A stretch of 64,000 nucleotides of DNA from a virus. Taxonomy: Duplodnaviria > Caudoviricetes. Made by a program: the position numbers and the translations under genes. Shown here one piece after another: positions 1-61,416 of this stretch (position 1 is its first letter; every line of letters starts with the position of its first letter). Under the pieces are notes generated by a model. That model made no database searches. It was not told the DNA's origin and saw only the letters and a list, made by a program, of their open reading frames with translations. The DNA is taken from positions 1-64,000 of IMG/VR virus record IMGVR_UViG_3300020576_004226; one strand, given 5' to 3'.

Positions 1-3000
1 GGTGAAAAGGCTTTCTTGATTATTGACGACAGGGAACACCTGTTCGACGTTGATATGCACTTTGAGTTGACTCTACCGGAGCGCAAGTCGCTTTTGGAGC
101 AAGAGCCGACCGGAATTGTATTTGAATTTGGCAAAAGAATCTATTGGGCTCCATATGATAAGGACTATTACGGGAGCAACCGAAAGGTAAAGATCGCCTT
201 CAATCAGTTCAAATTCATCGGCTCTCCGTTGCTCCAGATAGACATGGAATGGGCGCACCTCGGGGTACATACCGAATATGAGTTGAACAATGGTAATCAC
301 TCCCCTGACGCTTGGTGCGAGAAGGCTAAATTCATTGGTGCAAAAACCATTGCGCTTTGCGACCATAATTCGCTCGGGGGCACGCTGGCTTTCCAACTGG
401 CTTGCGACAAGAAGGGATTGAAGTCAATCATGGGGATGTCCACTACAATAACAAGGCCGAACGGACATAAATTTTCTGCTAAGTTGTTTGTGCAAAACAA
501 GGCTGGCTGGCGCAACCTTCTTCTGATAAGCAAGAACATACATATTGACCAAGACGACGGCGATTCTGTTACAGAGCAATTCCTGTTCAAGCATTCTGAA
601 GGACTTGCTTTTGTGTTCGGTTGCTTCTCGTTGCCAGCGCAGGAAGAGGAGTATGTTGTCATGCAAGGAGTTTTCAAATTGTATGCAAGCCGTTTTCAGC
701 AATGCTTTTGGCAGTTTGATTCGGTGGAGTTTGCAAGTGAGTCAACCGACCTTCGCGTTTTGAATAACTTGAAGTTTCTCAGGAGGGAATGCCCGCTACA
801 GCCTATACTTATCAACGACTCATATTACATAGACAAGGAGATGTGGCTGTTGAAAAAGTACATGAATAAGGCAGGAGGAGTTGCCCACCCGGAAAGCCAC
901 GAGCAGCATTTCAAAACGCTCGATGAGACATTCATAAAAGTCCTTGACCTATTTGGCGCCGAACGGGAAGACGAGGCTCTTGTGTTTTTAACGCAAGCGG
1001 TAGAGAACACCGTAATTTTGTCGGAGACGTGCGATTTTAAAATAGATGTTGGAAGGCACAAACTGCCCAAGTACGAGGTGGTATCGTTGAGTGAGTGCGC
1101 AGGAGACGCCAAACTCCAGCGCATTAGGGAAGCCGCTTTTTGGGAGGGGAGAGGTCTTGAACCCGGTGACATGAGCGGGTTGTTTCATCAATTGCTTGAA
1201 GAAGGTTGGGCAGCCAAATTGAGCCACCTGGATGATGACCAATTCCAAGAATACTACAAGCGGCTCGATACTGAATTGAATGTGATAGTCCCGGCTGGAT
1301 TCATTGACTATTTCCTCATACTTTGGGATTTGATAAGATGGAGCAAGCACGAACGAGGCATTATGGTTGGAAGCGGACGCGGCTCGGTTGCAGGCAGTCT
1401 GATAGCGTTTTTGCTCGACATAACAACGGTTGATCCCATACCATACGGATTGTTGTTTGAACGTTTCATCAATGAGACTCGTGTTTCAGGGGAACGAGCC
1501 ATGCAAGCCGACGCATTACCCGATATTGACTTGGACTTTGAATCAAAGCACCGAGGTGAGGTGAAGCGATATTTGGAATACAAGTATGGGAAGGACTTTG
1601 TCTGCTCTATTGGGGCTTATGGCAGAATGAAGGTCAAGTCAGGCGTGAAGGACTTCGCCAAAATAAAGGGTATTTCATTCTCTGATATGAATTACGTCAC
1701 CTCCTTCATGGATGAGCAATTGCAATGGCTTTGGGAAGATATTTTCAAGTATGCCTTGCAGTCTAAGGTTGTGTACGACTTTGTACAGAAAAACCCGGAA
1801 ATAATCAATGTATTGAACTTCGGCTTGAACCAAGCGACAAATGAATCGGTACACGCTTCCGCTGTAATTATTGTGCCCAAATTCGACCATGAGGGGACGC
1901 CGATGACCATATACGAATGGCTCCCTGTCAAGAAGATGAAAGGCCAAGACGGTGCTTCGATAATTGTGAGCCAATGGGAGGGGAAATATACCGACCGTGG
2001 AGGCTATTTGAAGGAGGACATACTTGGGCTCGACCAACTCGACAAGTTCCACCGCATCAAAGACATAATCATTGCCCAACTGGGTCAAGATGTCATACTC
2101 GAGGATATACCATTCGACGACCATCAAGTGTACAAGGCTTTTGGTAAGGGATGGGTTGAGGACGTGTTCCAATTCGGCTCTGACGGCTTGCGCTCCTACT
2201 CAATACGTTCCAAGCCGAAAGACATTGAGCACTTGATAGCAATGAACGCTCTGTACCGTCCTGGACCGATGTCAAGCAACGCTCACACCGACTTCGCCGA
2301 TATTTTGAACGGCAAGAAGGAGCCAACATATGACTACATGCTCCAGGAGGTTACGGAGCCAACGCTCGGGCTGTACGTTTACCAAGAGCAAATCATGAAG
2401 GCTGTAGTGGTTTTGGGAGGGCTTTCGCTTGTCGAGGCAGACAATTTCCGAACAGCGATCAAGAAGTTCGACAAGGCTAAAATGGCAGCTTACCAGGAGA
2501 AGTTTATTGCAGGCGCCATTGAGCGAGGTTGCCCCGATGACGAGGCAAAATCCATATGGGCTAAACTCCTGCGGTTCTCCGGTTACGGCTTCAACAAGTC
2601 TCACTCGGCGGCTTACTCAATCATGTCATATTGGAGCATGTGGCTGAAGGTTCACTACCCTGTTCCGTTCTGGGCTGCTTCACTGCAATTCAGCCGGGAC
2701 ACTCAAATTCCATACAGGATTTTTGAGATGTCTAAGGTCAATGGAGACATAAAGGTTGTTCCTCCCGATATCAATCATTCTACAAATGAATTTGCTTGTG
2801 ACATACCTTCAAAAACCATATTCTGGTCGCTGACAAAAATCAAAGGCATAGCAGAGAACGGCTTCAACAAAATCATGGCAGAACGGGAAAGAAGCCCATT
2901 CAAATCGGTTGAGGATTTTTTAAAGAGGATGAAGGGTACTGGAATGGGCAAGAGCAAGGCTTTGAGCCTCATTTTATCGGGGTGCTTTGATTCAGCTGAG

Positions 3001-3507
3001 GACATAAAGAAGCCTACAGACCGCATCCGAATCATCAACAAATTGTTTGAGTTGGAAAAGAGCGCAGTACCCGAAGAGTTCAACAGCAAGCAAATTGAGA
3101 AGGAGTATTTTTGGATTATGCTCCAGAGGGATTTGACAGGGTTTGGGGATATTGATTACCCTCACTTGATAGAACAAGTCAACAGAGTTTACACAACATA
3201 TTACACGAAAGCCGAGGATATACCTCTCGTGCGCTCCGGCAAAGAAGTCGTTGTCGCTGGCCAAATAGATGTCATAAGGCCGCGCACCGGGAAAAGAGGC
3301 AAATTTGCTGAAGTACGCATAAGAAACAACAACGGATTCATTGATGTTTTGATGTGGAACGAGGCTTGGGAGAAATATGGTAAAGCGGTCAAAGAGGCTT
3401 GGGAGAACAAAAGCCTTGTGTGTTTGCGTGGTCAAGTCAAAATGGATGATTACCGAGGCTTCAATTGTGTTTACTCTAACGAAAAAACAAGGTTCTTAAT
3501 TCTATGA
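1..3507 (+). CDS. dnaE: DNA polymerase III alpha subunit (phage DnaE); frame open to the window start, probably 5'-partial
   Basis: PHP motifs HLGVHTEY and LCDHNSLGG; GSGRGSVAGSLIAFLLDIT; catalytic LPDIDLDF; KEDILGL; GYGFNKSHSAAY; C-terminal OB fold. No stop between positions 1 and 16. Confidence 0.97.
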   Translation, partial: GEKAFLIIDDREHLFDVDMHFELTLPERKSLLEQEPTGIVFEFGKRIYWAPYDKDYYGSNRKVKIAFNQFKFIGSPLLQIDMEWAHLGVHTEYELNNGNHSPDAWCEKAKFIGAKTIALCDHNSLGGTLAFQLACDKKGLKSIMGMSTTITRPNGHKFSAKLFVQNKAGWRNLLLISKNIHIDQDDGDSVTEQFLFKHSEGLAFVFGCFSLPAQEEEYVVMQGVFKLYASRFQQCFWQFDSVEFASESTDLRVLNNLKFLRRECPLQPILINDSYYIDKEMWLLKKYMNKAGGVAHPESHEQHFKTLDETFIKVLDLFGAEREDEALVFLTQAVENTVILSETCDFKIDVGRHKLPKYEVVSLSECAGDAKLQRIREAAFWEGRGLEPGDMSGLFHQLLEEGWAAKLSHLDDDQFQEYYKRLDTELNVIVPAGFIDYFLILWDLIRWSKHERGIMVGSGRGSVAGSLIAFLLDITTVDPIPYGLLFERFINETRVSGERAMQADALPDIDLDFESKHRGEVKRYLEYKYGKDFVCSIGAYGRMKVKSGVKDFAKIKGISFSDMNYVTSFMDEQLQWLWEDIFKYALQSKVVYDFVQKNPEIINVLNFGLNQATNESVHASAVIIVPKFDHEGTPMTIYEWLPVKKMKGQDGASIIVSQWEGKYTDRGGYLKEDILGLDQLDKFHRIKDIIIAQLGQDVILEDIPFDDHQVYKAFGKGWVEDVFQFGSDGLRSYSIRSKPKDIEHLIAMNALYRPGPMSSNAHTDFADILNGKKEPTYDYMLQEVTEPTLGLYVYQEQIMKAVVVLGGLSLVEADNFRTAIKKFDKAKMAAYQEKFIAGAIERGCPDDEAKSIWAKLLRFSGYGFNKSHSAAYSIMSYWSMWLKVHYPVPFWAASLQFSRDTQIPYRIFEMSKVNGDIKVVPPDINHSTNEFACDIPSKTIFWSLTKIKGIAENGFNKIMAERERSPFKSVEDFLKRMKGTGMGKSKALSLILSGCFDSAEDIKKPTDRIRIINKLFELEKSAVPEEFNSKQIEKEYFWIMLQRDLTGFGDIDYPHLIEQVNRVYTTYYTKAEDIPLVRSGKEVVVAGQIDVIRPRTGKRGKFAEVRIRNNNGFIDVLMWNEAWEKYGKAVKEAWENKSLVCLRGQVKMDDYRGFNCVYSNEKTRFLIL

Positions 3508-4190
3508 AAAACACCATCACACGACGCATGTTATCGGGCGACTTTGACCGTCTGTTCGATACTATCCGCTGGAACAGTAGCCACTTTACTCACCAGCGTG
3601 AAAATCTCGCTTCACACCAATACATGGTTGGAGTTTTGGCGAACGCATTGGCCACTGACCTTTCGTTCGCTCCGGAGTATCGCTTGAATGTTCTTGAATA
3701 CGCTTTGTACCACGACTGGGATGAGATATTCACTGGCGACATAGGCCACGCCGTAAAATACAATACTCATAATGGACCAATTTTGCGCGACACCATTGAT
3801 CAATTGGTCGACTTTACAGCGAAGAAGGAATTCATTGAATCTGCCACTGACGAATCAGAAGTTTTGATTGGACGGGTTTTGAATGGAGAACACGGATACG
3901 CTCCAAGCATACCTATGCTTTCAAAGGTTTGCGATTGGCTTAGCATGCTATTCTTTTGCGTCCGGGAAACTCGGCTTGGTAACACCTATTTCCAAGAAAA
4001 ATTGGTTTATTGTTCCAATTCAACGCTCGGTGCTATCGACAGATTTTGGGAGCAATTCAAGATTGACGTGACCGAAAATGACGCATTCATCACGGTTTTC
4101 GAACCGGATGAGGAGATCATGCAAGAATTGATTGATATCATCAAAGAAATCACTCAATCTACATTACAAGTCGAAATAAAGCAAATATGA
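3504..4190 (+). CDS. HD-domain nucleotide phosphohydrolase (YfbR-like)
   Basis: IRW...ENLASHQYMV...YALYHDWDEIFTGDIGHAVKY...SKVCDWLS matches the YfbR-type HD layout. Confidence 0.85.
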   Translation: MKNTITRRMLSGDFDRLFDTIRWNSSHFTHQRENLASHQYMVGVLANALATDLSFAPEYRLNVLEYALYHDWDEIFTGDIGHAVKYNTHNGPILRDTIDQLVDFTAKKEFIESATDESEVLIGRVLNGEHGYAPSIPMLSKVCDWLSMLFFCVRETRLGNTYFQEKLVYCSNSTLGAIDRFWEQFKIDVTENDAFITVFEPDEEIMQELIDIIKEITQSTLQVEIKQI

Positions 4191-4888
4191 ACTTCGCATT
4201 CTATGGCCGCATCAACGCTGGCAAAGACACAGCAGCAAACATGATGTTTTTCGCTCTTACCTATTGGAAAAAGGGCATTCACAAAAACACTGCTCTTGGC
4301 CAGCCCAATCTCGAAACGATGTGTCAATTCTTTGGCTCTGATTTTGAAAGGGCTAATTTTCATGGAATGATGACCGACGGCAGTCAAACTCCATTCAAAG
4401 ACATAAAGTTTATGTCATTCAGTACTCGCATCCACGAGATGACTGCCTTGTTGACTGGTATACCATTGGAGCAATGCGTTGACCGTCAATTCAAAGATGT
4501 TTTGGTTCCAAGGGGATTTCATAAAACGATTCGTCAAATCATGATTGATATTGGGGAAGGTTTGCGGGCTTCTTACGGCGCCAATGTCTGGGTTGCTCCG
4601 GTGATGAATGCAATTGAAGAAAATCCACGCACCCTTATGTTGATACTCGGTATGCGTCATCCCAATGAGTACTCCGCTTTGGCCTCGTTGGGCAATACAG
4701 TGTTCGTCAAAGTCAAATTGGACTTTGAAGTTGTAAAAGGAGCGGAGTTTGCCGAAGGCTTATTAGAGGAGCATCCTTTTGACGTTGTTCTTGAGAATAC
4801 AAAGGGAGATTTGCGGTTTTTGTGGGAGCAGGTGGTAAACATGGTTTATTATTACGGCGACAAAATAACACTCGATTATGCAAACTGA
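4187..4888 (+). CDS. Deoxynucleoside monophosphate kinase (T4 gp1-like)
   Basis: GRINAGKDTAA P-loop; RQIMIDIGEGLR; NVWV; GMRHPNE. Confidence 0.85.
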   Translation: MNFAFYGRINAGKDTAANMMFFALTYWKKGIHKNTALGQPNLETMCQFFGSDFERANFHGMMTDGSQTPFKDIKFMSFSTRIHEMTALLTGIPLEQCVDRQFKDVLVPRGFHKTIRQIMIDIGEGLRASYGANVWVAPVMNAIEENPRTLMLILGMRHPNEYSALASLGNTVFVKVKLDFEVVKGAEFAEGLLEEHPFDVVLENTKGDLRFLWEQVVNMVYYYGDKITLDYAN

Positions 4889-5472: not shown

Positions 5473-6822
5473 ATGTCCAATTTACGCGACAAGTACAAAG
5501 CAACTCCGGTGAAGGCTCTGAAAAAGAGCATAACCGAGGAGGATGCCGAGTTCAGTTCAGGCCGTGGTCAGTTTGTTCAACTCACCGACGGTAAGAACCG
5601 AATCCGCTTCTTTCCATCACACAAGGCAAATGAGCGTTTCTACACCCTGCGCGCCTTCTATTGGGTGAAGAATTACGCCGACGACGACAGCGGCGACGAA
5701 ATGTACAACCGTACTGTTTTGTCTGCCCGGTTCCACTACCCAGATGCAAAATGGGATTTGATTGACGAGTACATCGTTGCTGCTCGTTCTTTCATCGAAA
5801 GCAACAGTGATTTTGAAGCCGACGAAAAGGCAGCCAAACTCGAGGTCATCACCAACTGGAAAACAGGCTTGCAGTTGTCCCGTTCCTGGGTTGCTTATTG
5901 CCTCAAAATCTCCGGAGACAAGCGTGAGTTTGGCCTCATTGAGATGAACAAAACCATCCGTGACAAAATCAACTCCGAGGTTCTCCTGGAGGATGAAGAC
6001 GAGCCAATCACAACCGACCCGTTCACTGACCCGGATTCAGGCAAAGTTGTCATCATCAATGTTGACAAATCCAAGCCAAAGGCCGACCAGAAGTACACAA
6101 TCAAAGTGTCAGGCGTGAATGCGCTGGAGGATGAGGAACTTGAAACATTTGACGCTGCTAAGCCGCTCGGCGACCTGTTCCACTACACTGCCAAAGATTG
6201 GGACTCCGGTTTGGAAGGTATCAAAATTTTCGACGACGCAAACGACATCGGCTTGTTCGCTGACAGCGACTGGTTGGAACACGTTGAGGAAATCAAAGCC
6301 CAATTCAATTTCGGCGGCTCGGCTTCCAAAAAGGCCACACCTGGCAAGAAGGCCGCTGCAACCAATGACGATGACGACGACGATGCTCCTCCGCCAACGA
6401 AAAAGGCCGCTCCTGCACCTCCGGTTAAAAAAGCAGCCGCTGCCCCACCTGTATCCAAGAAAGCACCTCCGGTTGTTGAAGAGGAAGAGGAAGAAGAACC
6501 AGCCTCAACCAGTTCAGAAGCAGATGAGTTTGACTCCATGGACAGGGATGAATTGAAGGCTTGGATCGCAGAAAAGCACACAACAAGTGAAGAGGCCGCT
6601 GAAGTTCTGCGTGTCAAGAAGTCAATGACCGATGACGACATCCGGGTGATGATTCGTGAGTTCGTTGCTTCAGAGGATTTGGGTTCTGACGAGCCTGAAC
6701 AAAATGACGACGATGAGGAAGAAACGCCACCACCTGCAAAGAAGGCTGTGACTGCTACCCCTACTAAGGCCACAAGCGTTGAAGATGTGCGTGCGCGTCT
6801 GGCTGGCCTGAAGAAGAAGTGA
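5473..6822 (+). CDS. Single-stranded DNA-binding protein (gp32-like) with long acidic/Pro-Ala-Lys-rich tail
   Basis: GKNRIRFFPS N-terminus; DPFTDPDSGK motif; poly-D/E runs; lies between UvsY-like and RecA genes. Start taken at ATG 5473. Confidence 0.7.
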   Translation: MSNLRDKYKATPVKALKKSITEEDAEFSSGRGQFVQLTDGKNRIRFFPSHKANERFYTLRAFYWVKNYADDDSGDEMYNRTVLSARFHYPDAKWDLIDEYIVAARSFIESNSDFEADEKAAKLEVITNWKTGLQLSRSWVAYCLKISGDKREFGLIEMNKTIRDKINSEVLLEDEDEPITTDPFTDPDSGKVVIINVDKSKPKADQKYTIKVSGVNALEDEELETFDAAKPLGDLFHYTAKDWDSGLEGIKIFDDANDIGLFADSDWLEHVEEIKAQFNFGGSASKKATPGKKAAATNDDDDDDAPPPTKKAAPAPPVKKAAAAPPVSKKAPPVVEEEEEEEPASTSSEADEFDSMDRDELKAWIAEKHTTSEEAAEVLRVKKSMTDDDIRVMIREFVASEDLGSDEPEQNDDDEEETPPPAKKAVTATPTKATSVEDVRARLAGLKKK

Positions 6823-6920: not shown

Positions 6921-8087
6921 ATGGCATTTTTAGATAGATTGCAACAACAATTTGACGGCGGCAAGACCTTCCGCTTTGGACAAGTTGACCCATTCCAAGA
7001 CGTTGGCTCTTGGGTTGGAACAGGCTCTCCCTCACTTGATTTACAATTAGGTACATTCGGCTACCCGACCGGAGTCATTGAGATTCGTGGTGTGAGTCAA
7101 TCAGGGAAAACCACAATGTCGCTTCAAGCGATGAAGACTGCTATTGAAAGTATGGGGGAACGAGCTGTAGTCTCCATTCTTTCCAGCGAACGTCGTGACA
7201 ACCTGGCCTACGCTGCGCAAATGGGAGTCCCGGTCAACCAAATTATCCTCCACCGAATCAAAACTATTGAGGACGTGAAGAACAAAATCTTCCAAACAAT
7301 CCGTAAAGCCGAGGCGCAACTGACGGCTTTCTTTGTTGAAGAAGGGAAGGACGCCAAGGTCAAAAAAGATGAATTGGAAGATTATGTAGCCAAGCGCAGG
7401 AGCGAATTTGGCCAGTTGCATTTCTTCTTCATTTGGGATGCGCTCGGGCAGACTGTTTCTGCCCAGGAACTACAAAAAGCAGAAGACAACGCTGACAAAG
7501 ACGAGACAGGAATGGCCGCTCTCGCTTCGGCTTCGCGAGCACTGCCTAATATGCTTCGGAGCATAAAAGCACTCGAGGATGACCATAACCTCACGCTGAT
7601 GATTATTAACAGAGCCTACGACAAAATAGATGGCACTCCTGGCAAGAAGTCGTACGGCGGCAACGCCATAGAACTTTTCCCGACAATGCGCTTGGAATTG
7701 ACGCGCATACAAGGAATCAAGGTGGGCGATGAGGAAGTGGGGCAAGTAAGCGAAGTTAAAGTCATCAAAAGCGACTTTGGCTCCCCTAAACAGTCGTTCA
7801 AAATCGAAATTGGTTATGGCCTTGGAATCATTCTCAACCAAGACGATATTGACTTCGGAATTGAATGCGGGGTGCTCGAGAAATTCGGGCAAGGTGGCGC
7901 CATTTTCACAATGGGAAAGAAGGAGATGTTGAAGTGGAAGACCCGGCGTGAGTTGTACCAGCTGTACACCGACCGTGACCCGAACTTGAAGATTCTTGTC
8001 AAGTTGCTTACCAGCAAGGCGCACGCTCGGGTGAAGAAGGAACGCGACGACAAGTTGGCCAAACTTCTGAAAGAGGCTGTGAAGTAA
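6921..8087 (+). CDS. recA: RecA/UvsX-like recombinase
   Basis: GSPSLDLQLGTFGYPTG; Walker A GVSQSGKTT; FIWDALG; YGGNAIELFPTMRLEL. Confidence 0.92.
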   Translation: MAFLDRLQQQFDGGKTFRFGQVDPFQDVGSWVGTGSPSLDLQLGTFGYPTGVIEIRGVSQSGKTTMSLQAMKTAIESMGERAVVSILSSERRDNLAYAAQMGVPVNQIILHRIKTIEDVKNKIFQTIRKAEAQLTAFFVEEGKDAKVKKDELEDYVAKRRSEFGQLHFFFIWDALGQTVSAQELQKAEDNADKDETGMAALASASRALPNMLRSIKALEDDHNLTLMIINRAYDKIDGTPGKKSYGGNAIELFPTMRLELTRIQGIKVGDEEVGQVSEVKVIKSDFGSPKQSFKIEIGYGLGIILNQDDIDFGIECGVLEKFGQGGAIFTMGKKEMLKWKTRRELYQLYTDRDPNLKILVKLLTSKAHARVKKERDDKLAKLLKEAVK

Positions 8088-8119
8088 CAGAGTTTTATCA
8101 TACCAGTTCGCCACTAAAC

Positions 8120-8157
8120 GAGCCGGAGTTGCTTTGGTGCGCTCCGGCTCTTCTTTT
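8120..8157 (+). terminator. Intrinsic terminator
   Basis: gagccggag...ctccggctc followed by ttctttt. Confidence 0.75.
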
Positions 8158-8160
8158 GAT

Positions 8161-9204
8161 ATGGAAAGTTTACTGATAACAGACACCCATTTTAGCAACG
8201 ATAACATCGCACAAGTCGATGATGTTATGTCACAGGGAATCAATCTCGCTTCCAAAACGAGAACAAAAACGATGTTCCATTTGGGGGATTGGTTTACCAG
8301 TCGCACAGGCCAGACTTTGACCACTCTAATGGGCATGCTCGTCGTGTTGAACAAAGCACAACAAAAGGGTGTAAAAATCATAACTATACCCGGCAATCAC
8401 GACAAGACAGACCTGGAGGATACCCGCTCCTATTTGGAGGTGTTTCGAAGCCACCCTGCTCTGGAGTTGTTTAGTCAAGAGGGCACAGTCAAATTGTCTA
8501 ATGACATCTTGATCCATCTTTTACCCTATTTTCCGGAAGAAGGGACTTACGCAGAAAGACTTGAAGAGCTGACCCGGCTTTCCAACCCAAAAGTCAAGAA
8601 CATATTGTTGACTCACATAGCGTTGGACGGAGCGCAAAACAATGACGGCTCTGCGCAGAAGAACAGCCTGACCAGAGACAAATTTTCCGCTTTCTTCCGG
8701 GTGCTTTCAGGCCATTACCACAACAGAAGTTCACCATGGGGAAGAGCGCAGTATATTGGCTCGGCTCGGGCTGCAAATTATGGCGAAGACAATGAGAAGG
8801 GCTTTACAATAATCAACCCAGATGGCGGCTTAAAATTTGTTAGATCAAATTTCGTTCAATACCACCAATTCGCTTTCAACCTGGAAAAGATTGAGGGAGA
8901 ACAATTCGTTGTTGATTACCAAGAGGCCACAACGCTTGCCGAGTTGGGTCATAACGTGAGGGCAAATGTGATTGGAACCGATGAGATGTTGGAGGCTTTC
9001 GATTACAAATTATTTGAATTGTATGGTATTGAGGTCGTCAGAAAGAATCTTAACATAGCCAAATCAATACATGATTTAGAGGAGGGCTTGACTGTCAGTT
9101 TTTCAGCGGTCGAAATGAGGAGGGCTTTCGTTGAATACTGCAAACTGAATGGAATAAAGGGCGAACTACTTGCGCTCGGCTTAAAACTTTTCAAAAACAT
9201 ATAA
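8161..9204 (+). CDS. SbcD/Mre11 (gp47-like) metallophosphoesterase nuclease
   Basis: TDTH, HLGDWF, PGNHD, LLTH and SGHYH motifs; adjacent to an SbcC-like ATPase. Confidence 0.92.
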   Translation: MESLLITDTHFSNDNIAQVDDVMSQGINLASKTRTKTMFHLGDWFTSRTGQTLTTLMGMLVVLNKAQQKGVKIITIPGNHDKTDLEDTRSYLEVFRSHPALELFSQEGTVKLSNDILIHLLPYFPEEGTYAERLEELTRLSNPKVKNILLTHIALDGAQNNDGSAQKNSLTRDKFSAFFRVLSGHYHNRSSPWGRAQYIGSARAANYGEDNEKGFTIINPDGGLKFVRSNFVQYHQFAFNLEKIEGEQFVVDYQEATTLAELGHNVRANVIGTDEMLEAFDYKLFELYGIEVVRKNLNIAKSIHDLEEGLTVSFSAVEMRRAFVEYCKLNGIKGELLALGLKLFKNI

Positions 9205-39302: not shown

Positions 39303-41276
39303 ATGTCGGATTTGCAACAAGATTACACGGCGGCAGGATTTGCTGCGCCTTCGGACACACGGCTTCCTGAATCACTATTGAGAACAGCGCACAGCCAAAA
39401 ACAAACAGTAAACCCAAACAAAGTATTGAGCGAATTGACCGTATGGATGAAATACGCTCGCTACATCCGGGACAAACAACGGCGTGAAACATGGACAGAG
39501 ATTTGCGACCGTAATCGGGAAATGCACCTGGAAAAATACCCTTGCCTTGCCGAGACAATCAACCGTATTTATGACGAGTTGGTAATTCCCAAGAAGATTC
39601 TCCCCTCAATGCGTTCCATGCAGTTTGCCGGCAGAGCAATTAAGCAACAAAACAGCCGAATGTTCAACTGCGCCTACGCTCCGATTGATTCCATTGACTC
39701 ATTTGGCGAAATTATGTTCCTGTTACTCGGTGGTACAGGCATGGGCTATTCAGTTCAACAACGCCACATTCAACAACTACCTTCTATCACCCGTCCAATG
39801 ACTGGTTCGGTTGAGGAGTTTGTCGTTGATGATTCGATTGAAGGCTGGGGTGACGCTGTCAAACAACTCATGGAATGCTACACCGAGTCAGGCCATGGAT
39901 ACCCTAAGTTTGATTTGAGTCATATTCGCCCAAGAGGAGCTGAATTGGTAACGTCAGGCGGCAAAGCACCTGGACCAGAACCGCTTCGCCTTTGCTTGAC
40001 TCGAGTTGAGGAGATTCTGCAGCGTCATCAGACCGGAGAGCGGCTTACCGACGTGGAAGTACATGACATCATTTGTCACATTGCGGATGCGGTTTACGCA
40101 GGTGGTATTCGCCGAGCGGCTTTGATTTGTTTATTCGACCGCTCTTCCATTGATATGCTCAACTGTAAAAGCGGAGCATGGTGGGAAAACAACCCGCAAA
40201 GAGGCCGCGCAAACAATTCTGCCGTACTTCCAAGAGGCGAAGTAAGCGAAGCCGAGTTCAAACAAATTTGGGCTGCCGTGGAGGCTTCTGGTTCCGGTGA
40301 ACCTGGCGTGTATTGGACAAATGACGAGGACTGGGGAACCAACCCTTGCGTTGAGACAGCCTTGCGTCCATACCAGTTCTGCAACCTCGTTGAAATCAAT
40401 GCTTCTGACATCACTTCAGAAAAGGATTTGTACGCTCGGGTTTGGGGAGCAACCGTCCTTGGAACGCTTCAAGCAGGTTACACTGATTTCAACTACCTGC
40501 GCAGTTGTTGGAAGGAGAACACTGAGAAGGACGCATTGCTGGGCGTTTCCATGACAGGTCTCGCTTCGCGTCGTCTCGAGCAATTAGGGACAAATCTCGC
40601 GCAACTCGCTCAGTTCGCTAAGGAGGTGAACGTATCATTTGCCGAAAAGATTGACATAAACCCTTCCGCACGTATCACTTGTATCAAGCCTGCAGGCACA
40701 ACCTCACTCACGCTTGGCACCTCGTCAGGCGTACACGCTTGGCACGATGAATACTACATTCGCCGGGTGCGCGTTGGGAAGCAAGAAGCCATATACAATT
40801 TCCTGGCTACCAACAACCCTGAATTGGTTGAAGATTGCAAGTTCAACCCGACTGCTACTGCGGTTGTTTCTATGCCGCAGCGTGCTCCGGTCGGCTCTTT
40901 GATTCGCACAGGTGAGACGGCTCTGGAAATGCTCGAAAGGGTAAAACATATTTACATGAATTGGGTGTTGGGAGGACATGCGGACGGCATCAACACCCAT
41001 AATATCAGCGCCACAATTTCGTTGCTTCCCGAGGAGTGGGAAAAGGTTGGTAATTGGATGTGGCACAACCGTGATTGCTACAACGGCATTAGCGTCCTTC
41101 CGTTTGACGGAGGCACTTACGTACAGGCGCCATTTGAGACAATCACCGAGGAACAATACCACTCAATGCTTCCGCTCGTTGGTGATATTGATTTGAGTCA
41201 AGTTTTGGAAGCGCAAGACGGGACAGACCTCGTACACGAATTGGCTTGCGCTGGAGGAGTTTGCGAGATCAATTGA
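39303..41276 (+). CDS. nrdJ: Class II (adenosylcobalamin-dependent) ribonucleotide reductase
   Basis: PSMRSMQFAG; MFNCAY; TNPCVET; QFCNLVEIN; TCIKPAGTTS; C-terminal ELACAGGVCEIN; no NrdB or NrdG nearby. Confidence 0.92.
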   Translation: MSDLQQDYTAAGFAAPSDTRLPESLLRTAHSQKQTVNPNKVLSELTVWMKYARYIRDKQRRETWTEICDRNREMHLEKYPCLAETINRIYDELVIPKKILPSMRSMQFAGRAIKQQNSRMFNCAYAPIDSIDSFGEIMFLLLGGTGMGYSVQQRHIQQLPSITRPMTGSVEEFVVDDSIEGWGDAVKQLMECYTESGHGYPKFDLSHIRPRGAELVTSGGKAPGPEPLRLCLTRVEEILQRHQTGERLTDVEVHDIICHIADAVYAGGIRRAALICLFDRSSIDMLNCKSGAWWENNPQRGRANNSAVLPRGEVSEAEFKQIWAAVEASGSGEPGVYWTNDEDWGTNPCVETALRPYQFCNLVEINASDITSEKDLYARVWGATVLGTLQAGYTDFNYLRSCWKENTEKDALLGVSMTGLASRRLEQLGTNLAQLAQFAKEVNVSFAEKIDINPSARITCIKPAGTTSLTLGTSSGVHAWHDEYYIRRVRVGKQEAIYNFLATNNPELVEDCKFNPTATAVVSMPQRAPVGSLIRTGETALEMLERVKHIYMNWVLGGHADGINTHNISATISLLPEEWEKVGNWMWHNRDCYNGISVLPFDGGTYVQAPFETITEEQYHSMLPLVGDIDLSQVLEAQDGTDLVHELACAGGVCEIN

Positions 41277-54890: not shown

Positions 54891-54987
54891 CGAGAAGCAT
54901 GCACAAATGTCCCCCACGATTGAAGAAGTCGCTGCCTTGCTTGACCGCTCGGTAGCGACTTTTATTTTGCACAAGGTTTTTAAGCAT

Positions 54988-55650
54988 ATGGACAATAAAT
55001 ATGTTATATGGTTTTTAGGAGCAAATGCTTCCGGCAAGTCAACTTTGTCTGCACTCATCCAGAGGGAATTGAGCGAACGTTACCCGAGGCGCAAGGACGC
55101 AAGAACTGATTTTGTGATTGATCAAAGCAACGGAGTCATATTGACTTTGACGTCAACGAATAGTGCCAACTTAGGTAAGTTCAATCACCCTGTTCTTTAT
55201 GAAGGAAAGGTCAAAACCAATGCATGCTGCGGCACTGACACGCTCCCAAAGAAGGATTTGATAGGGAGGGCTTTGGAGGTTGCTGGCTCAAATGAAATTA
55301 AATTCATTTTTGTTGAGGGTATTATGGCCACCCGACAATGGGTTGACCTATTCCCGGAAGGCTATCGAATTTTGCTCATATTGCTTGATATTGACATTGA
55401 GAACTGCATCCTGCGCCTTACCCAGCGAAGAAGTGAGAAGTCCGGTCTCGAGCAAAGAGAGGTGCTCGAATCGCTGACCGAGAAGACGGTGGAGAACGTC
55501 ACCGGGAAAATAAACGGCTTCCGCAGGATGTACGATGACCTGGTTTTGAGGCGAGATATTGTAGGAATGAAGTACGCTGTGGACCAAAGTTTTAACAGCG
55601 TCGAGATATCCAAACACATAGCAAATCTTTTAATTCATGGAAAAATTTGA
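54988..55650 (+). CDS. 5-hmdU DNA kinase-like P-loop kinase (copy 1)
   Basis: GANASGKST; LGKF...ACCGTDTL; IFVEGIM; CILRLTQRR; cluster context. Confidence 0.75.
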   Translation: MDNKYVIWFLGANASGKSTLSALIQRELSERYPRRKDARTDFVIDQSNGVILTLTSTNSANLGKFNHPVLYEGKVKTNACCGTDTLPKKDLIGRALEVAGSNEIKFIFVEGIMATRQWVDLFPEGYRILLILLDIDIENCILRLTQRRSEKSGLEQREVLESLTEKTVENVTGKINGFRRMYDDLVLRRDIVGMKYAVDQSFNSVEISKHIANLLIHGKI

Positions 55651-56539
55651 GACCCACGTGCTCATCATCGGGGCTGGCTTGTTCGGCTCCATGACCCAGA
55701 AACTCCTTCGCTCCAAAGGCATTGAGTCATTGATTGTTGACCGACGCGACCCGCTCTCCGCAAGCAAGTGCTCTTCAGGAATTTGGCGTCCAGGCTGGGC
55801 TGGAAAAATTGCTCCGCAAGTTGAGCAAAGTATCCCAACAATCAGCCTTTTCACGGCGATTGACACGCTTCCAATTTATGATGCCGACAAGGACACTGAG
55901 ACAAGCATCGACTTCATTGATTGCAACAACATTCTAAATGAAGACTTCCTGGAGGGTGATGTTATTGGCTGTAATTTTGTTGACAATCGCCCGAACGCCA
56001 AAGTGCGCTCCGTAATTGTTGATGTTGACGGAGTCAAAGTGGAAATTGGTTGCACACAACTCGTCATTTGCGCAGGAGCATTTACCAACGCAGTGCTCGA
56101 GAAACTCAAACTCCCTGTTCTTTACGGGCTTGACGCGCATTGGGGAGCGGTTCTGCACTGCCGAGAGAAATTGACGCAAAACTTCATCCAGAATTGGGCT
56201 CCATACAAGCAATTGTACGGCTTAAACTTGATTCGAGACGGTAAAGAGGTGTCATACTTCACAATGGGTATGTCAGCAAAAAATCCTCCAAAGGGAGGTG
56301 ACAACCGAACGCTTGCCATAGGTGAGAAAATGGAGGCCGCAGCCCGAGGCTTCAAAATGAAAAACATCATTGAGATACCCGAGGGCAACCGTCCTTTCTT
56401 TGCCGAGAAGGACGTTGATTTTGTCAACAAGCATACTGTCAACGTCTGGTCAGCAACTGGAGGCGCAAAAAACAGCACTCTGTTGTGCGGATATGTCGCT
56501 CAACGTCTTTTTCAAGAAATAACAGGCCATGCCCAATAG
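55637..56539 (+). CDS. FAD-dependent oxidoreductase/lyase (DAO/glycine-oxidase-like)
   Basis: IIGAGLFG Rossmann motif; ASKCSSG; VICAGAF; EGNRP; ATGGAKNSTL. Confidence 0.85.
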   Translation: MEKFETHVLIIGAGLFGSMTQKLLRSKGIESLIVDRRDPLSASKCSSGIWRPGWAGKIAPQVEQSIPTISLFTAIDTLPIYDADKDTETSIDFIDCNNILNEDFLEGDVIGCNFVDNRPNAKVRSVIVDVDGVKVEIGCTQLVICAGAFTNAVLEKLKLPVLYGLDAHWGAVLHCREKLTQNFIQNWAPYKQLYGLNLIRDGKEVSYFTMGMSAKNPPKGGDNRTLAIGEKMEAAARGFKMKNIIEIPEGNRPFFAEKDVDFVNKHTVNVWSATGGAKNSTLLCGYVAQRLFQEITGHAQ

Positions 56540-56540
56540 T

Positions 56541-56708
56541 ATGGAATGGAAATCAAAGTTAATTTTGCAAATAAAACACGGCATGCATAACGGCACAATC
56601 AAGCGTTCGATGGCACAAGAGATTGTAAATTTGATGCGCGAGAATAAGCCGTTTCGGTTGTTGTACAACCAAAACCGAGGCTACGTGGGATTCCAGTACA
56701 CATCATAA
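56541..56708 (+). CDS. Small ORF (55 aa) below the ORF-track cutoff
   Basis: ATG one base after the flavoenzyme stop; MEWKSKLILQIKHG...QYTS. Confidence 0.4.
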   Translation: MEWKSKLILQIKHGMHNGTIKRSMAQEIVNLMRENKPFRLLYNQNRGYVGFQYTS

Positions 56709-56732
56709 GTTTAACCAAAACTATTTAGCACC

Positions 56733-57041
56733 ATGGCAAAGGCCACCGACAAAAAGACTGCAAGCAAAGCAGCACCCGCTACCAAGCCGGCATCCAAACT
56801 CACCCCTGACGCAAAGGGCAACTACCCGCACCAATTGTACTCTGTGAAGCAGAAGACTTTTGTTGATCTGGCCAAGAAGCCTCTGCCTGTTTTGACTTCC
56901 ACCGGACGCGGCGCATACATGTGCAAAGGTCAGGATGTTGAAGGAAACACGCTGGCGATGATCGTGAGCAAATTGGTTGCTGCCAACTGGGTTGAACGCA
57001 AACTCGCTGTGTACGCAGAAGGTTCTGAACCGGAAGCGTAG
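56733..57041 (+). CDS. Small basic protein with K/A/P-rich histone-like N-terminus
   Basis: MAKATDKKTASKAAPATKPASK. Confidence 0.6.
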   Translation: MAKATDKKTASKAAPATKPASKLTPDAKGNYPHQLYSVKQKTFVDLAKKPLPVLTSTGRGAYMCKGQDVEGNTLAMIVSKLVAANWVERKLAVYAEGSEPEA

Positions 57042-57069
57042 TCTGTCCGACTGTTTGCGTTTTTCTACT

Positions 57070-57113
57070 TCCTGCCGGGACACCTCTCCATGGTTAAGAC
57101 CCGGCAGGATTTT
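57070..57113 (+). terminator. Intrinsic terminator
   Basis: tcctgccggg...cccggcagga followed by tttt. Confidence 0.7.
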
Positions 57114-57127
57114 AATTTTGAAACATC

Positions 57128-57715
57128 ATGAAATTCAAGCAAATATCAAAAACTGAATTGTACCCTTGGCTGAATTATATCAGCAAAACCTTCCGTGGGA
57201 TAATGCCTCCCAAAGAAAAGAAATTCCTTGGCGAAATTCGGGTTGGGGTTTTGTACAATTGCACAATGGTGGTCTTGGAAGATGAAGAAGTTGATGGTCA
57301 CCCGTTCTTGTCCCTTATCAGTTACACAATCACAAAAAGGTATCTGAACATCTATTTTATGTACACAACTCCAGGCTTCCGTGGTATAGGACTCAACAAT
57401 GCCATTTTGGATTATGTCATGGAAAATCACGCAGCTGAGATCGACCGTATATACGTCATCACCTCAACACTCGACAGCGTGGCGTTCTATTTCAACAAGG
57501 GCTTCAAGTTTTGGGGCTTAGACAAAAACCGTTGCCTTGTCGCAGAGTTTGATATAACAGCAACTGAACAACCGCGCAAGTCAGAGAAGGTGTGTAAGGA
57601 ACTTTACTTGGGAGAGCCTTTGAATGACGAGCGAATTGTTGACGAGTTGACGATGAATCAAAATCCAAATTACAATCACTCCGTCAAAGAATTGATGGCA
57701 AAGAAGATTCTATGA
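57128..57715 (+). CDS. GNAT-family acetyltransferase
   Basis: YFMYTTPGFRGIGL acetyl-CoA motif A; AFYFNKGF motif B. Confidence 0.82.
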   Translation: MKFKQISKTELYPWLNYISKTFRGIMPPKEKKFLGEIRVGVLYNCTMVVLEDEEVDGHPFLSLISYTITKRYLNIYFMYTTPGFRGIGLNNAILDYVMENHAAEIDRIYVITSTLDSVAFYFNKGFKFWGLDKNRCLVAEFDITATEQPRKSEKVCKELYLGEPLNDERIVDELTMNQNPNYNHSVKELMAKKIL

Positions 57716-58674
57716 GCGACACTAAAATCTACAAAGACTTTGACCTTTACAGCCGAGCGTTGATGGGCAGCAATGATGTCGACCCGACGTATCCGGTAAT
57801 CAAGTCAATCGTTGAGAAAGAGGGATTTGACCCTTATTGGTTTTCATTCGTGTATGTAGCGTTCTACAGCCTGGAGACGGCAATCAAAATGTGCCGGGAA
57901 ATGCCAACTCACGAGGCTTGGGACAGTAAGTTGTTTGCTCAAAAGCGGAGCAGCCGAGAGTGGAGCAAATTCGGTCACGAGCGCAGGGGAACTGCGAGGA
58001 ACATCTTGACCCAAATCAATAATTTCGAGCATATAAAGTTGTTCTTGGAATACTTCACAACTCCCACCGGAGAAATTGACCCGAGCCAATATCCAAAAGA
58101 ATGGGCAAAACTACACCAAGACCAAGCCTCATTCAGAGCAGCTCTTCAGACTTTACCGTTCCACGGCGGCTGGGCTTCTTTTAAGTTGGCTGAGATATGG
58201 GAGAAGGCTTTTGATTGGAGTCACTTTGAGATTCCAGACCTTGGAGTCATTGGCCGCGACCCGAATAGCAACGATGGTCCAGTTGGTGGCTTACGTTGGC
58301 TCTACGGAAGGGAGCACACCTACGATGACACTTGGTATGGCATATGGGATGATCTTGGCTCTAAGTTGGCGAGAGCGTGGCGAGTCGACATCGGGAGAGT
58401 TGAGACGTGCTTCTGCAAATTCCATAAGTTGGTAAGCGGCAAGTATTACATTGGTCATGACATACACGAGTTTCACGAGTTGGAGCCTGTATTGGGTCGG
58501 AGGGTTTACCGCTCCATAATGGAAGAACATTTTGACCCGGAAATTTGGCAAGACTTCCACGGTGTACAAAAACAATTCAAATCAGTTTACGCAACCAAAG
58601 GCAATTTGTTATTCAGCAACTTCGCTGACAAACACCCAGAGGCTGACGTACTACAAATTATGTTGGATCAATGA
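57712..58674 (+). CDS. Amino acid:DNA transferase (aGPT-Pplase clade 2)
   Basis: DVDPTY; YVAFYSL; ERRG; GGWASFKLAE; ETCFCKFHKLVSGKYYIGHDI. Confidence 0.85.
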   Translation: MSDTKIYKDFDLYSRALMGSNDVDPTYPVIKSIVEKEGFDPYWFSFVYVAFYSLETAIKMCREMPTHEAWDSKLFAQKRSSREWSKFGHERRGTARNILTQINNFEHIKLFLEYFTTPTGEIDPSQYPKEWAKLHQDQASFRAALQTLPFHGGWASFKLAEIWEKAFDWSHFEIPDLGVIGRDPNSNDGPVGGLRWLYGREHTYDDTWYGIWDDLGSKLARAWRVDIGRVETCFCKFHKLVSGKYYIGHDIHEFHELEPVLGRRVYRSIMEEHFDPEIWQDFHGVQKQFKSVYATKGNLLFSNFADKHPEADVLQIMLDQ

Positions 58675-59042
58675 AAAAGAAAGGAATGGAGGAGGACGTT
58701 GTGCGACTTCTCACTATCAATACTTCAACTGGCAAAGTTAGCAAACACATGCTGGTCGGCTCCAAGCGAGTTTTCATCGATTTGGAGCGTTGTCGCTGTC
58801 ACGTTCCTGGGGAGTCGAAATACCAATACAAGCATCTTGGTGTAGGTTGGAACGACTGCGAGTTGAACGTGGAAGACCCGAGCCTCGTCATTGTATTGCC
58901 TAATTGGCGGGTGCGCTTTGCCCAGAAAATTTGGGAGGGCGTGTTCTGCGACGACTTCGACAGCGGCAAGAATGATACGATATTGTTGAACATAAAAGAC
59001 TTGACCCGTTATGTGGGACAAGGCAAATGGAAGAAAATATGA
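58671..59042 (+). CDS. Hypothetical protein inside the modification operon
   Basis: ATGA overlaps at both ends. Confidence 0.6.
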   Translation: MKKKGMEEDVVRLLTINTSTGKVSKHMLVGSKRVFIDLERCRCHVPGESKYQYKHLGVGWNDCELNVEDPSLVIVLPNWRVRFAQKIWEGVFCDDFDSGKNDTILLNIKDLTRYVGQGKWKKI

Positions 59043-59674
59043 AGATTTTATGGTTGATAGGCTCTATGGCCTCTGGCAAAACCACGCAACACAAGTTGCT
59101 CATCGAGTTGCTCGGCGACGGTACGCTTGATGTCAATAATGGCTGCAAAGACCCGCTCCCTTTTTGCTTTTCAGTTTCTGGCGAGGTTGGTTCGCTTGGG
59201 CTTCTGAAAGAAGGAGTACAAACTTGTGGAATTGACCCGGTTTACGGCGACCTCAAAAAAGAAGGGCTTCGCCGCTCCATTGCGATGGCTCACGAGAAAG
59301 GCGCAGAGTTGATTATTATGGAGGGTGCACAAGCGTCTATGGAATGGTACAAGCAAGTCATTCTACCGCAATACTACGATGCGGAGCTGTACGTCGTCCA
59401 CCTGTCAATATCTTATGACCACAACTTGCAAAGACTCCGGCAACGGCGGTGGCTAAAAACTCACGACACATTGGAAGGCTTCACTGGCTCTGACCAGATG
59501 GTTTTGGAAGACCGGACGTATGACAATGTGCTCGGAAAGAACAAACAATACCGCAGCCTATTCCGGGCATTAACAAAGCAGTCTGAAAAGGACGGCTTCA
59601 AGACTCTGGAGATTGATGCGCTGCTTGATCGTTATCAAATTCTTGAACAAATTGCTGAATTCATATATGCCTAA
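59039..59674 (+). CDS. 5-hmdU DNA kinase-like P-loop kinase (copy 2)
   Basis: GSMASGKTT; SLG...TCGID; IIMEG; NLQRLRQRR; parallels copy 1. Confidence 0.72.
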   Translation: MKILWLIGSMASGKTTQHKLLIELLGDGTLDVNNGCKDPLPFCFSVSGEVGSLGLLKEGVQTCGIDPVYGDLKKEGLRRSIAMAHEKGAELIIMEGAQASMEWYKQVILPQYYDAELYVVHLSISYDHNLQRLRQRRWLKTHDTLEGFTGSDQMVLEDRTYDNVLGKNKQYRSLFRALTKQSEKDGFKTLEIDALLDRYQILEQIAEFIYA

Positions 59675-60365
59675 ATCACTCATTTTCTGCGACGACTCCC
59701 TGAAAGTATTGAAGCGTTTCCCGGCTCGCCACTTCGCTGTCAGCTGCTTCTCTCCACCCTATGGCGTCAATTCCTTCTTTGATATCAGAACCGACTTTGA
59801 CAGCCCAGAAAGCAAGTTCCTCACTTATTTTCAGGAGATCACTCGGGTGTGCGATATCACTGCAATCAATTTCACCCAGTTGCTTGAAGGTGACAAGCGC
59901 AATTCCCTCTTCATTGAGAAATTGATTATCAACGCGGCTTGCATGGGTGTCAACCTTTACGACCGTTGGGTAATTGAGAAGCCTTCGGTGAAGCCGAGGA
60001 GAGGCGAACGTCCTTTGAGCGGCTATGAGTTTGTGCTGCTGTTTTTGAACCCTAACATGACCGAGAAGGACGTTGTTTTGAACCAAGATGCTTACAACTT
60101 CCGTACAAACATAAAGGCTTCCGGACACGCAAACTACAAGAAGTCGGATGAATTCCGTTACACTGGAACCACCCCGTATTTCCCTGAGATTCCACGTCAG
60201 GTCATTTCCATATATGGCAGTGGTCGGGTGCTTGATCCATTTTCTGGCTCCGGTACGACGTTGGTTGAGGCTTTGAAGTTGGGGAAGGATTGCGTTGGGG
60301 TTGATATCATTCCGGAAATTGTTGAATTTTCAAGAAACAATTGCAGACAATATGAAAGTCACTGA
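59667..60365 (+). CDS. Beta-class amino-methyltransferase fold (N4C/N6A MTase-like)
   Basis: SPPY near the N-terminus; VLDPFSGSGTT SAM-binding motif near the C-terminus. Confidence 0.85.
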   Translation: MPKSLIFCDDSLKVLKRFPARHFAVSCFSPPYGVNSFFDIRTDFDSPESKFLTYFQEITRVCDITAINFTQLLEGDKRNSLFIEKLIINAACMGVNLYDRWVIEKPSVKPRRGERPLSGYEFVLLFLNPNMTEKDVVLNQDAYNFRTNIKASGHANYKKSDEFRYTGTTPYFPEIPRQVISIYGSGRVLDPFSGSGTTLVEALKLGKDCVGVDIIPEIVEFSRNNCRQYESH

Positions 60366-61416
60366 TATGCGCGACATAGTTGGCTACAATTTCGCCAACG
60401 GCATTGACCTGAGAAAGCCGCTCGAGTGGGTCGGTTCTCTTCCCAGCCCCGAGGTTGACGTGGATGAAGCGCACCTTGCCACGTTCTTTGAGATCATGAA
60501 AGAACGCCAAAAAATTTGGGTCAGGCGTTCGCTCCTTGACAAACCCGCTCCGTGGACTAAAAATCCCATTCTGCGCGACTACAAGTACACCAATGTGTAC
60601 AGGGAACTTGATCGAGCAAGCCAATTCATGATTAAGCACATCTTGACCCAAGATATGACGATTGAAGAAAAACTGTTCAAATTGCTCGTTTTCCGTTTCT
60701 ACAACCAACCCGATTCTTTCCGGCAGAACGGCGGCTTGATTGACCTTCCGAGTTATGAAAATTGGGACGTCAAAAAGATTTGGGCGCAAACAGTGGCACA
60801 GCGTCAAAAGTCCAACCCTTGGCACGTCGCTTACATGATGAACATGGCGTTCGCTCCGAAGTTGGAGAAGCCTTGGAGCAAGCCTGGACTGTACAAAGAC
60901 TGGGCATACACTCACATTGTATTCAATGCTATTCATAAGGTGATACCCGGCTTGGTTACTGTGCTCGATCAAGCCAAAAGACCGGAAGACATAATTGAAT
61001 GCCTGGAAACAATTCCTGCTGTCTCCACTTTCCAATCGCACGAATTTTACATTGACTTCACATATTTCAGCCGTTACTCGGAAGACGACGCCATAATGAG
61101 TTTTGACGCGAATGATTTTACAAATGTGGGTCCAGGGGCATCGCTCGGGTTGCGGTTGATATTCCCATCAATGCGTCCAGCCGACCAGAAAGCAGGGCTT
61201 TACTACCTACACGAATTGGCTGAGAATTACTTGGGGGAGGACTTTCCGTATCTCGTGTGGAATAAAGATCAAAAGAAATATTATGTTGTACACGAGTACG
61301 ACCGCAATCTGTTCACGCTTCACCAAATTGAAATGTTTTTGTGCGAATTTTCTAAGTACTGGAAAATGGTAATTGGTGCAGGAAAGCAGAGATCAAAATT
61401 CAAACCACATGTGTAA
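60352..61416 (+). CDS. aGPT-Pplase clade 1 protein (5-hmdU modification, helical domain)
   Basis: ERQKIW..R..PAPWTKNPILRDYKYTNVYRELDR; FRFYN; VGPGASLGL; IEMFLCEFSKY. Confidence 0.88.
   Translation: MKVTDMRDIVGYNFANGIDLRKPLEWVGSLPSPEVDVDEAHLATFFEIMKERQKIWVRRSLLDKPAPWTKNPILRDYKYTNVYRELDRASQFMIKHILTQDMTIEEKLFKLLVFRFYNQPDSFRQNGGLIDLPSYENWDVKKIWAQTVAQRQKSNPWHVAYMMNMAFAPKLEKPWSKPGLYKDWAYTHIVFNAIHKVIPGLVTVLDQAKRPEDIIECLETIPAVSTFQSHEFYIDFTYFSRYSEDDAIMSFDANDFTNVGPGASLGLRLIFPSMRPADQKAGLYYLHELAENYLGEDFPYLVWNKDQKKYYVVHEYDRNLFTLHQIEMFLCEFSKYWKMVIGAGKQRSKFKPHV

Follow-up and report, generated by a model that had tools for sequence, protein, structure and literature searches.

The stretch of DNA analyzed here (the window; 64,000 nucleotides) corresponds to bases 1-64000 of the 85,321-bp IMG/VR record IMGVR_UViG_3300020576_004226 (CheckV completeness of ~76%), and all of its plausible genes lie on the + strand. 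At positions 54907-61416, we observe a cluster of genes whose products resemble the DNA modification enzymes of phage PaMx11, namely, a 5-hydroxymethyldeoxyuridine (5-hmdU) DNA kinase paralog (54907..55650), an N-alpha-glycinylthymine lyase/oxidase that depends on flavin adenine dinucleotide (FAD) and is homologous to PaMx11 gp47 (NGTO; 55637..56539), a GNAT-fold acyl-CoA N-acyltransferase (57128..57715), and an aGPT-Pplase of clade 2, or amino-acid:DNA transferase (AADT; 57712..58674). These are the four enzyme types that a sequence-only reading had placed here, and homology, fold, and motif evidence upholds each of them at these positions on the + strand. A second kinase paralog (59027..59674) and a clade-1 aGPT-Pplase (60295..61416) are extra components that lie beyond the coordinates covered by that reading. 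With moderate confidence, we interpret the cluster as a PaMx11-type pathway for post-replicative thymidine hypermodification, with acylation by the GNAT protein included. Relatives used for comparison (designated L010, L012, L014, and L016-L021) were taken from a protein database.

The flavoenzyme, a protein of 300 aa, matches Pfam DAO (1.8e-9) and phrog_16743 (3.3e-19) and has an N-terminal FAD-binding motif, GAGLFGS, of the GxGxxG type. A phmmer search against the PDB links it to the PaMx11 gp47 flavin-dependent lyase (8z2o/8z79; E = 4.3e-16), with residues 5-295 aligned to residues 2-285 of 8z2o at 23% identity. The structure of gp47 shows a flipped-base cage formed by W51, Y180, Q182, and K268, with DNA contacts made by F52, K202, R210, and Y244 and with R242 modeled as holding the glycyl carboxylate of the adduct (PMC11472151). 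We observe that W54, Y190, Q192, K215, R252, and K278 of the window protein correspond to W51, Y180, Q182, K202, R242, and K268 of gp47, respectively, and that these six residues are invariant across the window protein, its homologs in three relatives, and gp47 itself. As judged from the alignment, the catalytic and substrate-recognition core is retained and some of the DNA contacts have drifted, a pattern that fits the same reaction, i.e., the conversion of N-alpha-glycinylthymidine into 5-aminomethyl-dU (5-NmdU) and glyoxylate. In L021 (5777-6599), the flavoenzyme gene is called in two pieces of 185 and 104 aa, which may reflect a frameshift or an assembly error.

The AADT (320 aa) is predicted to be a glycine:5-phosphomethyl-dU (5-PmdU) transferase, with the evidence for its family coming from phrog_6364 (3.6e-16), a clade profile, fold, and pocket residues. 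Its match to Pfam ADDT (PF18724, formerly aGPT-Pplase2) reaches 20.5 bits, under the cut-off of 26.2 bits; we find at least 85 homologs, many of them on contigs of 80-110 kb, and most carry a precomputed PF18724 match. When a profile built from 31 members of the clade is compared with the PDB, the two solved glycine:DNA transferases are matched (25qc at 8.8e-11 and 8z2m, the gp46 glycinyltransferase, at 4.2e-8), and no other AADT appears at E<=1. The AlphaFold2 (AF2) model is all-helical (predicted local distance difference test [pLDDT] score, 94.4), and its top three fold matches are gp46, followed by helix-hairpin-helix DNA glycosylases (Ogg/AGOG). Identity to gp46 and to M6 gp51 is about 15-21%, and the nearest homologs in cultured phages are actinophage enzymes linked to Tet/JBP (tblastn, 1e-8 to 2e-14). 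Judged by sequence and by model, the protein is a clade-2 transferase with a predicted glycosylase-like fold.

With respect to the donor, the structure of gp46 with DNA and glycine places E243, T244, and C247 in the catalytic centre and shows glycine contacts with W146, K150, and D24 (PMC11472151); the catalytic role of E243, T244, and C247 is also described in PMC8989533. Furthermore, the residue that follows the catalytic Cys and one eleven positions beyond it (G227 and D238 of the SH-Ab 15599 enzyme) correspond to K248 and Y257 in the YuA glycine enzyme, where the Tyr comes nine residues after the Lys, and swapping those two residues alone turns the diamine transferase into a glycine transferase (PMC13458397). 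In the window AADT, the catalytic residues are found as E231, T232, and C235 (an E-T-x-x-C motif), with E and C invariant across 87 aligned sequences and T present in 80/87. The glycine contacts are found as D24, W154, and K158 (gp46 D24, W146, and K150), the donor determinants as K236 and Y245 (K248 and Y257; Lys in 82 and Tyr in 84 of the 87 sequences), and gp46 D262 and E265 as D250 and E253. At the two donor-determinant positions, G/D or W/N is found in the characterized diamine and serine enzymes, and the actinophage proteins have an Asp following the catalytic Cys. These pocket residues are the strongest argument that the donor would be glycine or, failing that, some alpha-amino acid held via its carboxylate.

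A quick maximum-likelihood tree puts the window AADT in its own well-populated, separate deep clade, not close to gp46, rather than inside the characterized glycine-transferase clade. This clade lies apart from the glycine (PaMx11 and M6), diamine (PhiW-14 and SH-Ab 15599), serine (ViI), and actinophage Tet/JBP groups, and the PaMx11/M6 glycine pair groups with the diamine enzymes; the deep placement is unsure because the branches are long. Assignment of the window AADT to the actinophage Tet/JBP-linked subfamily was considered and rejected, since it falls in a separate clade and the actinophage enzymes have Asp instead of Lys after the catalytic Cys.

Kinase 1 is recognized by Pfam HMUDK_HMUD1 (PF18748) at 22.4 bits, under the cut-off of 27, and also by phrog_800 (5.7e-9) and by BLASTP against PaMx11 gp49 (2e-9). 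The Walker A, LG..C.G.D, EG, and RLxxRR motifs are common to both window kinases, gp49, M6 gp54, and Wooper gp4, and the sequence evidence identifies kinase 1 as a putative DNA kinase of the 5-HMUDK family; its true start may be Met28 at 54988, the start used in the earlier reading. The second kinase paralog is tied to this family by tblastn, which connects it with kinase genes in L010 and L012, as well as by its Walker A and family motifs. L012 has three kinase paralogs. The clade-1 protein, a homolog of PaMx11 gp50 and M6 gp55 whose start is likely the ATG at 60352, matches PF18723 (Pfam HMUDK_hel) at 151.9 bits (E = 3e-44; cut-off, 25) and gp50 by BLASTP at 7e-19, with the E-x-x-x-C-E-F motif kept. 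This motif resembles the clade-2 catalytic centre. In L010 (11030-12731), the kinase and clade-1 genes overlap directly, recalling the kinase/clade-1 fusion of SP10 gp186. It is conceivable, although unlikely, that a second mark is written by kinase 2 and the clade-1 protein.

The GNAT protein (195 aa) is assigned primarily by fold, as its match to Pfam Acetyltransf_7 (21.8 bits) is under the cut-off and the same holds for the Pfam GNAT matches in six of seven members of its clade. An AF2 model of the seven-member family has a pLDDT score of 84.8, and Foldseek returns 289 matches in the PDB at E<=1e-3, with almost all of the matches listed being GNAT-family acetyltransferases. An R-G-I-G-L-N motif, of the kind expected for acetyl-CoA binding, aligns with K-G-L-G-L-G of PaMx11 gp48. 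An ESM Atlas search with the protein retrieved generic viral GNAT clusters only. We also considered orthology with gp48, which is unsupported, the shared acetyl-CoA core being generic.

The kinase, DAO-type flavoenzyme, AADT, and clade-1 genes are found in this order just upstream of the portal gene in all six relatives sampled, whose AADTs are 39-73% identical to that of the window; since the set is kept in 6/6, it is more than a chance assembly. Additional genes vary, with a GNAT gene in the window and L010 and a MazG/PRA-PH-like protein in L014. L020 has three genes resembling GIY-YIG homing endonucleases amid its modification genes (3305-3976, 6099-6677, and 7926-8663). Pfam scans of small and unassigned open reading frames (ORFs) in the relatives' clusters yielded nothing useful except for an FkbM-type methyltransferase in L020 (8653-9396).

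Candidate nucleotide-pool genes lie at the other end of the window. A DnaE-type DNA polymerase III alpha occupies 1..3507 (Pfam DNA_pol3_alpha, 1.3e-58; also PHP, finger, and HHH_6), in agreement with the DnaE-based replisome proposed in the sequence-only reading; its 5' end is missing, and alignment to relatives indicates that the record begins ~35 codons inside the gene. It is followed by an HD-domain YfbR-like 5'-deoxynucleotidase (3504..4190; Pfam YfbR-like, 3.3e-17), which overlaps the DnaE stop codon, and by a deoxynucleoside monophosphate (dNMP) kinase (4187..4888; phrog_139, 7.8e-19), so that the two genes at 3504-4888 overlap in series with DnaE. HD nucleotidases and dNMP kinases are usual partners in the replacement of dTTP by hmdUTP. 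The HD protein is a candidate for clearing dTMP/dTTP from the pool and the dNMP kinase a candidate hmdUMP kinase, and the pair is likely a nucleotide-pool module that excludes dTTP and supplies hmdUTP.

No homologs of ThyA, ThyX, or Tet/JBP were found in the 85-kb record. In relatives, whose DnaE-upstream regions were reached via homologs of the HD protein, a ThyA-family (PF00303) gene encoding 411-420 aa immediately precedes and overlaps DnaE (L016, 5137-6399; L017, 5167-6414; L018, 5185-6420), and one of these three is the same 94.9-kb contig that carries a syntenic modification cluster. The protein matches PaMx11 gp51 (4e-46) better than the CMP hydroxymethylase MilA (3e-23) or canonical thymidylate synthases (~1e-14), and it keeps the catalytic Cys and a uracil-type Asn. 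It is unusually long, with ~160 C-terminal residues without a match.

Taken together, these genes suggest the following pathway. A hydroxymethylase, the HD nucleotidase, and the dNMP kinase would allow replication with 5-hmdU replacing T. Kinase 1, possibly together with its paralog, would then generate 5-phosphomethyl-dU in the DNA, after which Cys235 of the AADT would attack C6, the phosphate would be expelled, and the alpha-amine of glycine would be added to give N-alpha-glycinylthymidine. The flavoenzyme would oxidize the N-C-alpha bond of this adduct, with hydrolysis leaving 5-aminomethyl-dU and glyoxylate, and, from gene context, the GNAT protein would acylate the freed amine, most simply to 5-acetylaminomethyl-dU (5-AcNmdU). 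Modified in this way, the DNA would be shielded from host nucleases. On the strength of the sequences, we consider the route from the kinase via transfer of glycine (or an amino acid) to flavin cleavage and 5-NmdU likely, and we give N-acylation of 5-NmdU about an even chance. The proposal of the sequence-only reading that one product is 5-AcNmdU or an analog is well supported up to 5-NmdU by sequence, with gene context alone speaking for the N-acetylation. Its observation that PLP (pyridoxal phosphate) decarboxylase and radical-SAM genes are absent extends from the window to the entire record, as no radical-SAM, PALP, or ViI gp226-like PLP enzymes were found in the whole 85,321 bp (~76% complete).

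Several points weigh against this pathway. The phage is uncultured, and its proposed pathway is read here from genes. The dUMP hydroxymethylase is not in the 85-kb record, which starts inside DnaE; this gap is best explained by the contig break, because the relatives encode the gene directly upstream of DnaE, and by comparison with them a ThyA-family dUMP hydroxymethylase gene would lie immediately outside the record, past its 5' end. Three of the DNA-contact residues of gp47 are changed in the flavoenzyme (F52->A, R210->N, and Y244->F). Furthermore, a terminator-like hairpin (57071..57119, + strand) with a G+C-rich stem of 9-10 bp and a T-run, read in the sequence and supported by RNA folding (-25.1 kcal/mol; z = -3.0 versus shuffles), sits between a 102-aa ORF and the GNAT gene and divides the FAD-enzyme unit from the GNAT/AADT unit.

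The remaining points bear on individual steps and on the alternatives to them. The pathway could end at 5-aminomethyl-dU, or the amine could be tailored otherwise, with the GNAT protein being cargo whose substrate is, for example, some protein, polyamine, or host metabolite, which we regard as possible but rather unlikely. The GNAT gene looks like a recent addition to the lineage: a database holding 5.8 billion proteins has 8 homologs of it, each from one of the nearest relatives, and the clusters of L012 and L014 have no GNAT match; in L019, L020, and L021, no GNAT family is seen among the called genes, nor is any GNAT recognizable in the L020 and L021 clusters, and a 152-aa ORF of L019 just before the AADT has no Pfam match. 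Similarity to gp48 (140 aa) is generic, as the alignment covers the 56-60-residue acetyl-CoA core alone (BLASTP, 6e-4; hhalign probability, 66%), and the isoelectric points (pI) differ (6.8 for the GNAT protein versus 9.0 for gp48). On the other hand, the GNAT stop codon overlaps the AADT start codon, the gene is kept in the same neighborhood in L010 at 55% identity, it is the sole GNAT gene in the record, and there is a precedent in PaMx11, where the GNAT gene lies between the lyase and the kinase and its product adds an acetyl group to the amine that the lyase sets free (PMC8989533). It is this context that argues for acetylation, because the likeness to gp48 is confined to the core and the protein is restricted to the nearest relatives. 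Most simply, the GNAT protein would be an independently recruited N-acyltransferase for 5-NmdU.

It is quite unlikely, in our view, that the AADT adds another alpha-amino acid or carboxylate-bearing amine, from which the flavoenzyme would release 5-NmdU and another keto acid or make a different product. The donor is read from pocket residues alone because the AADT clade, at ~15-21% identity to gp46 and M6 gp51, is separate from every characterized enzyme; the pocket has one substitution (His for gp46 K261), the actinophage homologs, with an uncharacterized donor, also retain the W, K, and Y, and many Pplase2 clusters have uncharacterized donors (PMC13458397). Glycine is nevertheless favored by an AADT in which none of the three glycine contacts and neither of the carboxylate determinants has been lost, by the flavoenzyme Arg that is modeled on the glycyl carboxylate in gp47, and by a clade profile that finds glycine enzymes and no other AADT in the PDB.

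Finally, it is very improbable that these genes are unrelated to DNA, with the flavoenzyme and AADT, for example, acting on tRNA or small molecules and their co-location being incidental: the tRNA enzyme MnmC is a relative of gp47 (PMC8989533) and the Pfam scores of kinase 1 and the AADT are both under the gathering cut-offs, but the best and only strong matches are DNA-acting phage enzymes, five PaMx11 cluster genes recur together with their synteny fixed in six relatives, and relatives carry a hydroxymethylase-type ThyA homolog.

Two further genes lie within the cluster. Ahead of the hairpin, a basic protein of 102 aa (56733..57041, + strand; pI 9.6; 65% identity to its counterpart in L010, the closest relative, in which it is conserved) has a Lys/Ala/Pro-rich, histone-H1-like N-terminus and no Pfam or PHROG match. 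Downstream, where the ORFs from the GNAT gene through the clade-1 gene form a chain of overlaps, an N6/N4-type DNA amino-methyltransferase (59667..60365, + strand; Pfam N6_N4_Mtase, 3e-13; an SPPY motif, with FSPPY and DPFSGSGTT in the translation) has been inserted after kinase 2 and ahead of the clade-1 gene in the window record only, being absent from L010, L012, and L014. The ordinary reading of this enzyme is anti-restriction methylation to N4-methylcytosine (m4C) or N6-methyladenine (m6A), and an alternative is N-methylation of 5-aminomethyl-dU, like that by the tRNA enzyme MnmC. The FkbM-type methyltransferase of L020 occupies the same slot and is of an unrelated type. It is conceivable, although unlikely, that 5-aminomethyl-dU is a branching hub, with a fixed core and with tailoring genes (GNAT and N6/N4 or FkbM methyltransferase) that are interchangeable between relatives. 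Were this so, close relatives would carry different N-substituted aminomethyl-uracils, and an N-methyl form would be the DNA counterpart of tRNA 5-methylaminomethyluridine (mnm5U), of which we know of no description so far.

The source of the DNA is an uncultured large tailed phage of ~110 kb with a DnaE-based replisome, as follows from its gene content and from relatives' contigs of 80-110 kb with the same genes. Also encoded in the window are RecA and an SbcCD-like nuclease pair, a UvrD-type helicase, a DEDDh exonuclease, a large terminase, a clamp-loader-like protein, and a topoisomerase. A 657-aa protein (39303-41276) shows weak, sub-threshold matches to the ribonucleotide reductase (RNR) barrel and to the B12-dependent RNR insertion domain and may be a divergent class II RNR. 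At the DNA level, a similarity search with 54900-58700 gave no match among 50,697 phage records, and pattern-based IMG/VR searches with the AADT and DnaE found no relative.

Among known systems, the closest parallel is PaMx11 gp46-gp50 (5-AcNmdU; PMC8989533 and PMC11472151), with the same five families, i.e., AADT, FAD lyase, GNAT, 5-HMUDK, and clade-1 protein. Because kinase 2 and the clade-1 gene add to the four genes first recognized, all five of these consecutive PaMx11 genes have counterparts within 6.5 kb here. The likeness extends to an HD protein (gp52) in the PaMx11 cluster and to a ThyA-family hydroxymethylase, found in that cluster and in the relatives of the window phage. The window enzymes also share with gp46 its catalytic residues and those that bind glycine, and with gp47 the residues that form the base cage and bind the carboxylate. 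Despite this, identity is low for the FAD enzyme (23%) and the AADT (about 15-17%), the GNAT protein shares the acetyl-CoA core only, and the genes are arranged differently, two small ORFs and the hairpin lying between the lyase and GNAT genes and a second kinase and an N6/N4 methyltransferase being inserted. The nucleotide-pool genes of the window lie ~50 kb away, beside DnaE, and PaMx11 is a 60-kb siphovirus, whereas the window phage is ~110 kb and has DnaE.

The 5-aminoethyl-dU (5-NedU) cluster of M6/YuA likewise has a 5-HMUDK, a glycine-type AADT with the K248/Y257 signature, and a clade-1 protein, but M6 tailors N-alpha-glycinylthymidine by a radical-SAM isomerase and a PLP decarboxylase, where the window has a flavin lyase and a GNAT protein instead. 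Actinophage clusters that combine Tet/JBP, aGPT-Pplase2, and kinase genes (for example, Gordonia phage Wooper gp2-gp4) also have an AADT gene by a 5-hmU DNA kinase gene, near the terminase. In contrast to the window record, they make 5-hmU by a Tet/JBP dioxygenase, and their AADTs form a separate clade with Asp instead of Lys after the Cys; in the regions examined, no FAD lyase or GNAT is annotated for Wooper or Kozie. Compared by description, MnmC (5-carboxymethylaminomethyluridine [cmnm5U] to 5-aminomethyluridine [nm5U] to mnm5U) is similar in that flavin-dependent cleavage turns a glycyl adduct on the uracil C5-methyl into an aminomethyl group, in line with the homology of gp47 to MnmC reported in PMC8989533; it differs in acting on tRNA and in having a fused Rossmann methyltransferase domain, where the window has DNA as the predicted substrate, a GNAT protein, and an unrelated DNA-type methyltransferase nearby.

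Lee et al. (PMC8989533) described how such pathways are built, which enzyme families take part, and how these genes are combined across IMG/VR contigs, also with flavin oxidoreductases. The cluster adds a distant member to an anti-restriction DNA chemistry that is already known; it is not a new kind of system, and the general picture of how such pathways work is unchanged. What is new here is a deep, populous AADT clade whose pocket is of the glycine type, the constant association of this clade with a gp47-type lyase in a phage lineage of ~110 kb that replicates with DnaE, and a non-orthologous GNAT.

To our knowledge, PaMx11 is the only phage for which biochemical work has demonstrated the flavin-lyase branch, and its native DNA was never analyzed. 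The findings presented here suggest that the same chemistry has spread to unrelated large phages that replicate with DnaE, via an AADT clade that nobody has characterized, and the lineage is a natural test of the published two-residue donor rule. Furthermore, a set of close relatives in which nothing but the tailoring genes varies (GNAT and two methyltransferase types) would be useful for learning what sets the final DNA chemistry, and their enzymes are potential tools for writing defined groups onto DNA.

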